This document shows positions 47,817 through 49,120 of a stretch of DNA of 50,066 nt, piece after piece. Both the position numbers and the translations under genes were made by a program. The notes under the pieces were generated by a model. That model saw only the letters and a list, made by a program, of their open reading frames with translations, searched no databases and was not told where the DNA came from. Origin of the DNA: Escherichia phage EF3-1. Numbering within the stretch: the stretch's first letter is position 1; each line of letters starts with the position of its first letter. The DNA is taken from the sequence record PQ571291; one strand, given 5' to 3'.

Positions 47817-48293
47817 ATGGCACAGATTAATGCATCTTATCAGCGAGACATGGCTATTGCGCTTCCGGGTATGGTTGCGGATACTTCGAAGTATAATATT
47901 GATGGCGCTTGCGTCGTTAACGAAGGTGATGTTTTTGTTGGCGCTGCCGTACAGGTTGTTCAAGCCCAAGCCGTTGACGGCCATAAATTGGTTAAGGCTA
48001 TGGAATCGTCTAAAGTGCCGTATGGCGTAGCTATTCGATCTCACTGGCAGACTGTGAACAAAGATAATCAGATGATTTACGAAGATGGCGGCGCTATCAA
48101 CGTGATTACCTCCGGTAGAGTTTGGATGCTTTCCAAATCAGAAGAAGCACCAACTTTCGGGACCGCTGTAAAACTTGACGTTGACGGTCAAGAGAAATCT
48201 GATGGTACGATCGAAACAACTTGGACCTACGCTGGCGGCTGGACCAAATATAAAGACATTCAGCTTGTTGAAGTTCAGTTGCATCAACTGTAA
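47817..48293 (+). CDS. capsid-associated (decoration-like) protein, paralog 1 (158 aa)
   Basis: Shares YNIDG.CV..GD..FG.AV, PYG.A.RS, SGRVW.L.S.EAP, W..AGG motifs with 48353-49120. Confidence 0.5.
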   Translation: MAQINASYQRDMAIALPGMVADTSKYNIDGACVVNEGDVFVGAAVQVVQAQAVDGHKLVKAMESSKVPYGVAIRSHWQTVNKDNQMIYEDGGAINVITSGRVWMLSKSEEAPTFGTAVKLDVDGQEKSDGTIETTWTYAGGWTKYKDIQLVEVQLHQL

Positions 48294-48309
48294 TTAGCGT
48301 TTAATATGG

Positions 48310-48338
48310 GGACTATCCTTTTGGATAGTCCTTTTTTT
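48310..48338 (+). terminator. rho-independent terminator
   Basis: Perfect 9-bp stem GGACTATCC-TTTT-GGATAGTCC followed by T7. Confidence 0.7.
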
Positions 48339-48352
48339 ATGGAGAAAATACT

Positions 48353-49120
48353 ATGCCTTACGAAAATTTAATGTTACGCCCGGCGTGCCCTGGTAATCTT
48401 TCGGATACTTCAACCTACAATATTGATGGATCTTGTGTTGCTCAAGGCGATATTGAGTTCGGCTCCGCTGTTAAAGTTATCGGTATTGTTGACGGCGTTA
48501 AGGTTGTTTCCACGCTTACTGATGGTGAAACACCTTACGGAATCGCTTTCCGTTCCCAATATGAACACCTGAGCGGTAAAATCCTCGACGGTGAAGTTTG
48601 CAACGTCGTTTCTCATGGTCGCGTGTGGACGCTAACTTCTCTTGATGAAGCTCCGGCCTTGTTCTCAAAGTTACAATTTGGATCTGGTGGTGTTGTTACT
48701 GGTAGCTCTGGTTCCGTAGGTTGGACTTTTGCTGGTGGATTTGTTAAGCACGAGGACGGGTACATTATTGAGGTTCAGGTTAAGCAAAATGCCTTTATTG
48801 TTCCACCTCCACCCCCTCCCGTGGTTCTTGTTGAGTCTGCGACGATTACAACTAACAAGGAGAGTCCTCAGCCAAACAATGCACCTGTGCAATTTAACGT
48901 TGCTGTAAAACCTGACAATGCCACCGATAAAACTGGCGTGTGGTCTGTTGATGCTGAAAATATTGCGACAATAGATCCAAAATCTGGCGTTCTTACTCCA
49001 ATTGGTGGAGATGCGGCAGGTAGCGTAATCGTAAATTGGACGGCTAACGATGCCAGCAAAACTAAAGAATCGATCACTTATGTTTTTGATGCTGTGCCAG
49101 CCGAAGAAGAAGAGTCATAA
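48353..49120 (+). CDS. capsid-associated (decoration-like) protein, paralog 2, with poly-Pro linker and Ig-like C-terminal domain
   Basis: N-terminal domain paralogous to 47817-48293; PPPPPPP linker; C-terminal beta-rich segment resembling bacterial Ig-like fold. Confidence 0.55.
   Translation: MPYENLMLRPACPGNLSDTSTYNIDGSCVAQGDIEFGSAVKVIGIVDGVKVVSTLTDGETPYGIAFRSQYEHLSGKILDGEVCNVVSHGRVWTLTSLDEAPALFSKLQFGSGGVVTGSSGSVGWTFAGGFVKHEDGYIIEVQVKQNAFIVPPPPPPVVLVESATITTNKESPQPNNAPVQFNVAVKPDNATDKTGVWSVDAENIATIDPKSGVLTPIGGDAAGSVIVNWTANDASKTKESITYVFDAVPAEEEES

Follow-up and report, generated by a model that had tools for sequence, protein, structure and literature searches.

Two adjacent genes of Escherichia phage EF3-1 (sequence record PQ571291), here called A and B, encode a T1-type pair of capsid cement proteins, the second of which carries an Ig-like domain. 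Full-length identity, equal lengths, and a shared location flanked by the protease and capsid genes identify them as the orthologues of T1 gp49 and gp48. In the account that we favor, with a probability of roughly 93% for the whole of it, A and B would assemble into T1-like trimers, B would be expressed from an interval of low transcription, and its Ig-like domain would make weak contacts with surfaces. By analogy with T1, trimers of the cement domains would occupy the 140 threefold and quasi-threefold positions of a T=7 shell and clamp neighboring capsomers. With the numbers transferred from T1 and from phage FCWL1, each virion would carry 360 A and 60 B subunits in 80 A3 homotrimers and 60 A2B heterotrimers, and B would project its Big_2 Ig-like domain outward on a rigid six-proline linker. 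The feature as such is already known from the cryo-EM structures of T1 and FCWL1 and from an existing Pfam family. Minor new points are the divergence of the Ig-like domain as a cassette, relatives with no or two such domains, and a promoter-like site that partly overlaps a hairpin upstream of the major capsid gene.

The DNA stretch that was analyzed, referred to as the window, comprises 50,066 nucleotides. In a nucleotide search, its region from 46600 to 50066 was 98.5% identical to Shigella phage vB_SsoS-ISF002 and 88 to 98% identical to many other Tunavirus genomes; by its sequence, the window belongs to a T1-like siphophage (Tunavirus, Drexlerviridae). The order of protease gene, A, terminator, B, and capsid gene (Table 1) is the same as in T1, where it reads gp50, gp49, an annotated rho-independent terminator, gp48, and gp47. 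Once the ends of the window were joined, the major capsid protein comprised 319 aa and showed 97.5 to 99.6% identity to tunavirus capsid proteins. Its gene is split across an exact 141-bp direct repeat, with positions 1 to 141 repeating positions 49926 to 50066, which suggests an overlap from a circular or circularly permuted assembly that was written linearly. Overlapping minus-strand open reading frames, such as the one at 47700 to 48044 (114 aa), were taken as spurious because the plus-strand genes are conserved and structurally validated. An Rfam scan of 46500 to 50066 returned one match only, at chance level (E value of 0.97), and no NCBIfam model matched either A or B.

Table 1. Coordinates of the cement gene pair and neighboring features in the window
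Feature	Position	Strand	Basis or remark
Gene A, short cement (decoration) protein, 158 aa	47817..48293	+	Orthologue of T1 gp49
Gene B, long cement protein with Ig-like domain, 255 aa	48353..49120	+	Orthologue of T1 gp48 and FCWL1 gp29
Cement domain of B, residues 1-150	48353..48802	+	Paralogous to A
Six-proline linker of B, residues 151-156	48803..48820	+	Direct sequence reading
Big_2 Ig-like domain of B, residues 163-238	48839..49066	+	Pfam; followed by an acidic tail (AEEEES)
Predicted intrinsic terminator between A and B	48308..48338	+	Pattern scan, folding, and conservation
Predicted RBS of B, GGAG	48341-48344	+	3' of the A-B terminator
Sigma-70-like promoter consensus upstream of the major capsid gene	49133..49160	+	Best-scoring site in the region
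Terminator-like hairpin with T6, closing the putative transcription interval of gene B	49162..49190	+	Abuts the promoter-like site
Major capsid protein gene, T1 gp47 orthologue	49212..50066, continuing 142-246	+	Pfam PF09950, E value of 1.5e-48

The original prediction, made without database searches, held that the two genes share an N-terminal domain with conserved motifs, and it named pairwise alignment as a check. In BLASTP, A and B shared 39% identity and 63% positives over 144 aa, with an E value of 9e-31, so the common domain reflects real paralogy. Motifs were likewise evident in an alignment of 19 homologues, in which D18, Y22-N23, D25-G26, C28, G89-R90, W92, W124, G128-G129, E140, and Q142 were invariant. 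When the N-terminal domain of B was searched against the whole window with tblastn, it recovered itself and gene A only. Both proteins matched the Pfam family PF22758, Phage_cement, described as "Structural cement protein (E217 gp24/Pam3 gp6)," with 102.2 bits for A and 59.8 bits for B at a curated gathering cut-off of 27 bits. They also exceeded the cut-off of PF23982, and both fell into the same PHROG family, phrog_1989.

Full-length matches to solved structures were obtained for each of the two proteins. For A, the match was to the chains 9kmg_a/9kzj, labeled "cement protein II / decoration protein" (E value of 1.5e-95). For B, the matches were to 9kzj_H (E value of 1.2e-135) and 9kmh_ak (E value of 7.9e-135), under the names "BIG2 domain-containing protein" and "Decoration protein gp29." The fold of A is taken from the solved T1 chain, to which it is 92% identical. 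For B, an AlphaFold2 model was built on a 19-sequence alignment; in a Foldseek search of the PDB, its best match was the T1 capsid chain 9kzj_H (E value of 1.8e-20), followed by FCWL1 9kmh_ak and then by chains of the short paralogue. Compared with the experimental chains, the modeled cement domain of B (residues 1 to 150) gave target-normalized TM scores of 0.88 for 9kzj_H and 0.91 for 9kmh_ak, and the fold match to chain 8hdt_G of cyanophage Pam3 was weaker than these two.

The arrangement of the orthologous proteins on a virion is known from the T1 head, which was solved by cryo-EM (PDB 9KZJ; Chen et al. 2025, Viruses 17:351; PMC11945409). It consists of 415 gp47 copies on a T=7 lattice, to which 80 gp49 homotrimers and 60 heterotrimers of one gp48 and two gp49 subunits are attached (PMC11945409). 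Since 80 and 60 add up to 140, the 20T sites of the lattice, the head carries 360 copies of gp49 and 60 of gp48. The N terminus of gp49 extends as far as the inner face of the shell, and gp48 remains outside (PMC11945409). Residues 154 to 255 of gp48 gave weak protruding density and were modeled with AlphaFold3; the Ig-like domain within them projects flexibly from the head surface, and the authors suggest that this C-terminal part may aid adsorption, as has been proposed for T5 and crAss001 (PMC11945409). Both proteins were also modeled in the FCWL1 entries 9KMG (capsid) and 9KMH (portal vertex). The paper on KanT1, another T1-like phage, makes no mention of the pair.

These structures bear directly on the central claim of the original prediction, that the pair is capsid associated. 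Cryo-EM had been named there as a check and absence of the proteins from virions as the result that would speak against the claim; the former has effectively been carried out in the close relatives T1 and FCWL1, and the latter is contradicted for both. The observation is thus real, and its earlier interpretation is supported as essentially right. As the T1 and FCWL1 orthologues have been seen on capsids, that interpretation is also already published.

Genes A and B are separated by the hairpin GGGGACTATCC-TTTT-GGATAGTCC. A pattern scan placed the stem-loop at 48308 to 48333 and a run of seven T residues at 48332 to 48338; the stem consists of 11 pairs. Folding of the 62 intergenic nucleotides (48291 to 48352) yielded -17.6 kcal/mol (z score of -3.5, with 0 of 200 shuffled sequences as good), and a 46-nt stretch around the hairpin yielded -17.5 kcal/mol (z score of -3.8, 1 of 200). 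The arms were almost constant among 12 related tunavirus loci and the window, and the loop ranged from 4 to 8 T residues. Changes within the arms amounted to G-to-A in one locus (L013), C-to-T in two (L011 and L012), and a wobble change in another two (L003 and L004). A search for compensatory changes in the stem across the same sequences found one wobble change and loop-length variation only; the relatives are too similar, and covariation is therefore no evidence for or against the stem. The records of T1 and SA12KD annotate the site as a rho-independent terminator. With its G+C-rich stem, the adjoining T run, and a stability greater than that of shuffled sequences, the hairpin qualifies on sequence grounds as an intrinsic terminator, in agreement with the strong terminator that had been predicted at this place.

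The gap between B and the capsid gene spans 91 nt and contains a promoter-like site composed of TTGACG, 16 nt with an extended -10 TG, and TATTAT (10 of 12 consensus matches). Its hexamers and spacer were identical in 13 of 13 tunavirus sequences, and it is annotated as a promoter in SA12KD. The site partly overlaps or abuts a terminator-like hairpin with T6 just upstream of the capsid gene, which was nearly constant in the 13 sequences and folded at -15.0 kcal/mol (z score of -6.6). A transcript that starts approximately 7 nt past the -10 element, at about position 49167, loses most of the 5' arm of this hairpin, and the calculated stability thereby changes from -15.0 to between -5.3 and -3.3 kcal/mol. 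The hairpin being weakened in promoter-initiated RNA, transcripts arriving from upstream might stop at this point and those initiated at the promoter-like site might pass into the capsid gene.

B was the only head gene with terminator-like hairpins on both sides. The A-B terminator and the second hairpin with its promoter-like site would place B in an interval of low transcription, which would fit its six-fold lower copy number, and the promoter-like site would restart transcription for the high-copy capsid gene. By comparison with T1, unequal expression of A and B is a plausible fit to the 360 and 60 copies per head.

Gaps between late genes contain a repeated unit of a G+C-rich hairpin, T6-7, and A(T)TGGAG, the last of which includes the RBS of the next gene. 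Such hairpin and T-run units, which may attenuate transcription, stabilize mRNA, or do both, were located at 44616 to 44637, 48308 to 48338, about 254 to 280, and 49162 to 49190. The first and third of these lie 3' of the terminase gene and the capsid gene, and more than 10 terminators of this kind are annotated in the late region of T1. Terminator-like hairpins thus occur in many late gaps of T1-type phages, and the A-B hairpin is not specific to the pair. The portal gene, whose product is present in 12 copies, lies upstream in the same interval as A with its 360 copies; therefore, transcription alone cannot set the protein ratios, and translation and assembly selectivity must also contribute. 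These three points are what recommends a different reading, in which the A-B hairpin is mainly a 3' stabilizer or processing site, or is very leaky, and the 6:1 ratio results from translation efficiency and assembly selectivity. We regard it as a close contender whose chances fall somewhat short of even, since an 11-pair stem followed by T7 is a canonical strong intrinsic terminator and, among the head genes, B alone has such hairpins on either side, together with a promoter-like site that would restart capsid transcription. A terminator that contributes to the 6:1 ratio of A to B stays our preferred reading, but because of the similar units elsewhere, the number of them in T1, and the interval shared with the portal gene, tuning by the terminator is something that we infer.

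The poly-proline linker that had been noticed in B is present, with six prolines instead of the seven originally counted. Residues 151 to 162, which include it, were identical in 13 of 13 aligned tunavirus sequences; the codons of the linker differ. The beta-rich Ig-like module predicted downstream of the linker was recovered by several methods. Pfam Big_2 (PF02368) matched residues 163 to 238 with 27.7 bits (cut-off of 22.8 bits), and among PHROGs the C terminus matched Ig-domain structural and tail-tube families. The AlphaFold2 model (mean pLDDT of 86) consists of two all-beta domains. Its residues 160 to 250 reached pLDDT values of 94 to 97 and include a predicted all-beta Ig-like domain of seven strands; confidence was lowest at the linker, with values below 50 for residues 147 to 152 and means of 65 and 72 for two ten-residue blocks across it. 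Foldseek matches of the C-terminal domain were the Big_2-CBM56 structure 7quz and the tail-tube Ig-like domains of T5 pb6 and DT57C. The beta-sandwich fold assigned to the Ig-like domain is a modeled one, as it is in the T1 relative. Searches of Pfam, PHROG, and the PDB gave no match to the Hoc or pb10 families, only generic Ig-like domain matches. A tblastn search of the whole window with the C-terminal domain of B found no further copy, and the idea that the Ig cassette derives from the phage's own tail-tube protein was rejected, as the window search gave the A/B pair only.

In comparison with T1, the Ig-like domain was far more divergent than its surroundings. Amino acid identity was 92.4% for A against gp49 and 97.9% for the major capsid protein. 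For B against gp48, it was 90.7% in the cement domain, 60.8% in the Ig-like domain, and 36% in the tail, or approximately 80% overall. At the nucleotide level, identity fell to 58 to 78% across 48791 to 49150, with mostly 80 to 98% on both flanks, and the proline linker lies near the upstream edge of this divergent block. Nei-Gojobori estimates against T1 gave a dS of about 0.68 and a dN/dS of about 0.09 for gene A, 0.56 and 0.08 for the cement domain of B, and 0.50 and 0.03 for the major capsid protein gene. For the Ig-like domain with the tail, dS was approximately 2.1, which is saturated, and dN/dS was approximately 0.14. Saturated synonymous sites together with this dN/dS indicate an old allele rather than recent positive selection, which is accordingly disfavored as the cause of the low identity. 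The allele was probably placed by recombination.

Two allele classes of the Ig-like domain were visible among tunaviruses. The cement domain of B was 89 to 93% identical across tunaviruses that carry the other allele and 99 to 100% identical in the closest relatives. Alleles of the window type (at least 90% identity) were found in about 18 phage records, and 56 records, T1 included, fell into the band of 60 to 80%; no link between allele and stated host was obvious among those records. A homologue of B was present in 816 phage records, only 179 of which covered at least 80% of the protein; at least 132 records retained the Ig-like domain, judged by a coverage of 80% or more of its length. Some homologues have two tandem Ig-like domains (336 to 346 aa); others are devoid of the domain, their C terminus being a short tail rich in proline or acidic residues. 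In Shigella phage Shfl1 (positions 3001 to 3801 of locus L005), the B homologue carries an 11-residue tandem duplication, KPDNATNKTGVW, inside its Ig-like domain. At least two deeply diverged alleles and both one- and two-domain versions thus exist among T1-like phages, in keeping with a cassette. A more ambitious proposal is that the cassette is swapped at the proline linker, maybe tuning adhesion, and that the terminator, B, and the promoter-hairpin unit form a device setting A, B, and capsid protein at 360:60:415; we consider it rather unlikely.

By analogy with T4 Hoc and T5 pb10, for which such a role has been proposed, the exposed Ig-like domain may make weak contacts with carbohydrates or surfaces, and adhesion through it is plausible. 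Alternatively, the domain may have no external ligand, being either passive or an aid to folding, to the choice of heterotrimer sites, or to shielding of the capsid. It is evolutionarily dispensable, as shown by the single cement gene of Webervirus and by some close homologues without it, and a dN/dS of about 0.14 corresponds to ordinary purifying selection and not to the signature of an arms race. However, a conserved proline linker holds the domain off the shell, and its retention in so many records, occasional duplication, and probable exchange as a cassette are typical of surface-interaction modules. Moreover, binding to mucin glycans is known for related Ig-like proteins on capsids, namely T4 Hoc and Hoc-like proteins (PMC11150434). 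A domain without a ligand therefore strikes us as the less probable of two serious options, and weak adhesion remains our preferred reading.

Names in public records are of little help with this gene pair. A-like genes appear as "HtjA" or "putative zonula occludens toxin," B-like genes as "Scaffolding protein SbcC like," "putative scaffolding protein," "capsid fiber protein," or "hypothetical protein," and the head protease gene often as "major head subunit precursor." Two of these names, and the location of gene B between the protease-scaffold gene and the capsid gene, would suit a protein that serves only in scaffolding or assembly and is lost before virion maturation, a reading that we consider extremely improbable, as orthologous chains are built into the T1 and FCWL1 cryo-EM capsid entries and B lacks a coiled-coil, its model comprising two all-beta domains. 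In Shigella phage vB_SsoS_008 (positions 3001 to 4168 of locus L016), the B region is occupied by a 270-aa open reading frame that starts upstream, within the terminator region, and does not end in frame, and the capsid gene is truncated; these anomalies are probably sequencing or assembly frameshifts.

Genes A and B can now be named capsid cement proteins in place of the misnomers or the "hypothetical protein" found in most GenBank records, and beyond correct annotation the result has little import. One Ig-bearing subunit per heterotrimer nevertheless constitutes a natural display of the domain at exactly 60 copies per head, which could serve phage display or the engineering of T1-like therapeutic phages. 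Foreign domains are likely to be accepted at the place where this cassette-like variation occurs.

Among known systems, T1 itself is the closest. Its gp49 and gp48 agree with A and B in length (158 and 255 aa), gene order, intergenic terminator, and an identical proline linker, but B differs in the allele class of its Ig-like domain and tail, which show 61% and 36% amino acid identity to those of T1 and saturation at synonymous sites. The decoration proteins of FCWL1, gp29 included, match A and B over their full length, although FCWL1 carries the T1-type Ig allele. A short and a long gene also occur as a pair in Warwickvirus JK16 (Tempevirinae) and in Klebsiella phage K50_evo15. Klebsiella phage Skenny (Webervirus, Drexlerviridae; positions 2459 to 2980 of locus L019) has a single 173-aa cement gene, annotated "capsid decoration protein," between its protease and capsid genes, so that not every member of Drexlerviridae has the two paralogues.

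More distant counterparts are found in the two Pfam families whose cut-offs A and B exceeded, PF22758 with Pseudomonas phage E217 gp24 and cyanophage Pam3 gp6 and PF23982 with XM1 gp53. These three proteins form cement trimers at the threefold positions of capsids with the HK97 fold, and the Pam3 chain 8hdt_G showed a weak sequence match in addition to its fold match to the pair. In contrast to the phage studied here, the myophages E217 and Pam3 each have only one cement protein, and it has no Ig-like extension; a heterotrimer of two paralogues is a feature of T1-like phages. According to the authors of the T1 structure, the cement domains of gp49 and gp48 resemble lambda gpD and TW1 gp56 in their beta-tulip fold and in where the trimers sit on a T=7 head (PMC11945409). 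Neither gpD nor TW1 gp56 has detectable sequence similarity to A or B, and lambda, unlike T1, uses one protein without an Ig-like domain at all 140 sites. T4 Hoc and T5 pb10 resemble B in that an exposed Ig-like domain is tethered by a separate anchor and in the weak binding to surfaces or glycans that has been suggested. However, they are monomers at hexamer centers with unrelated anchors, whereas the anchor of B would be a subunit of the cement trimer at the quasi-threefold sites.
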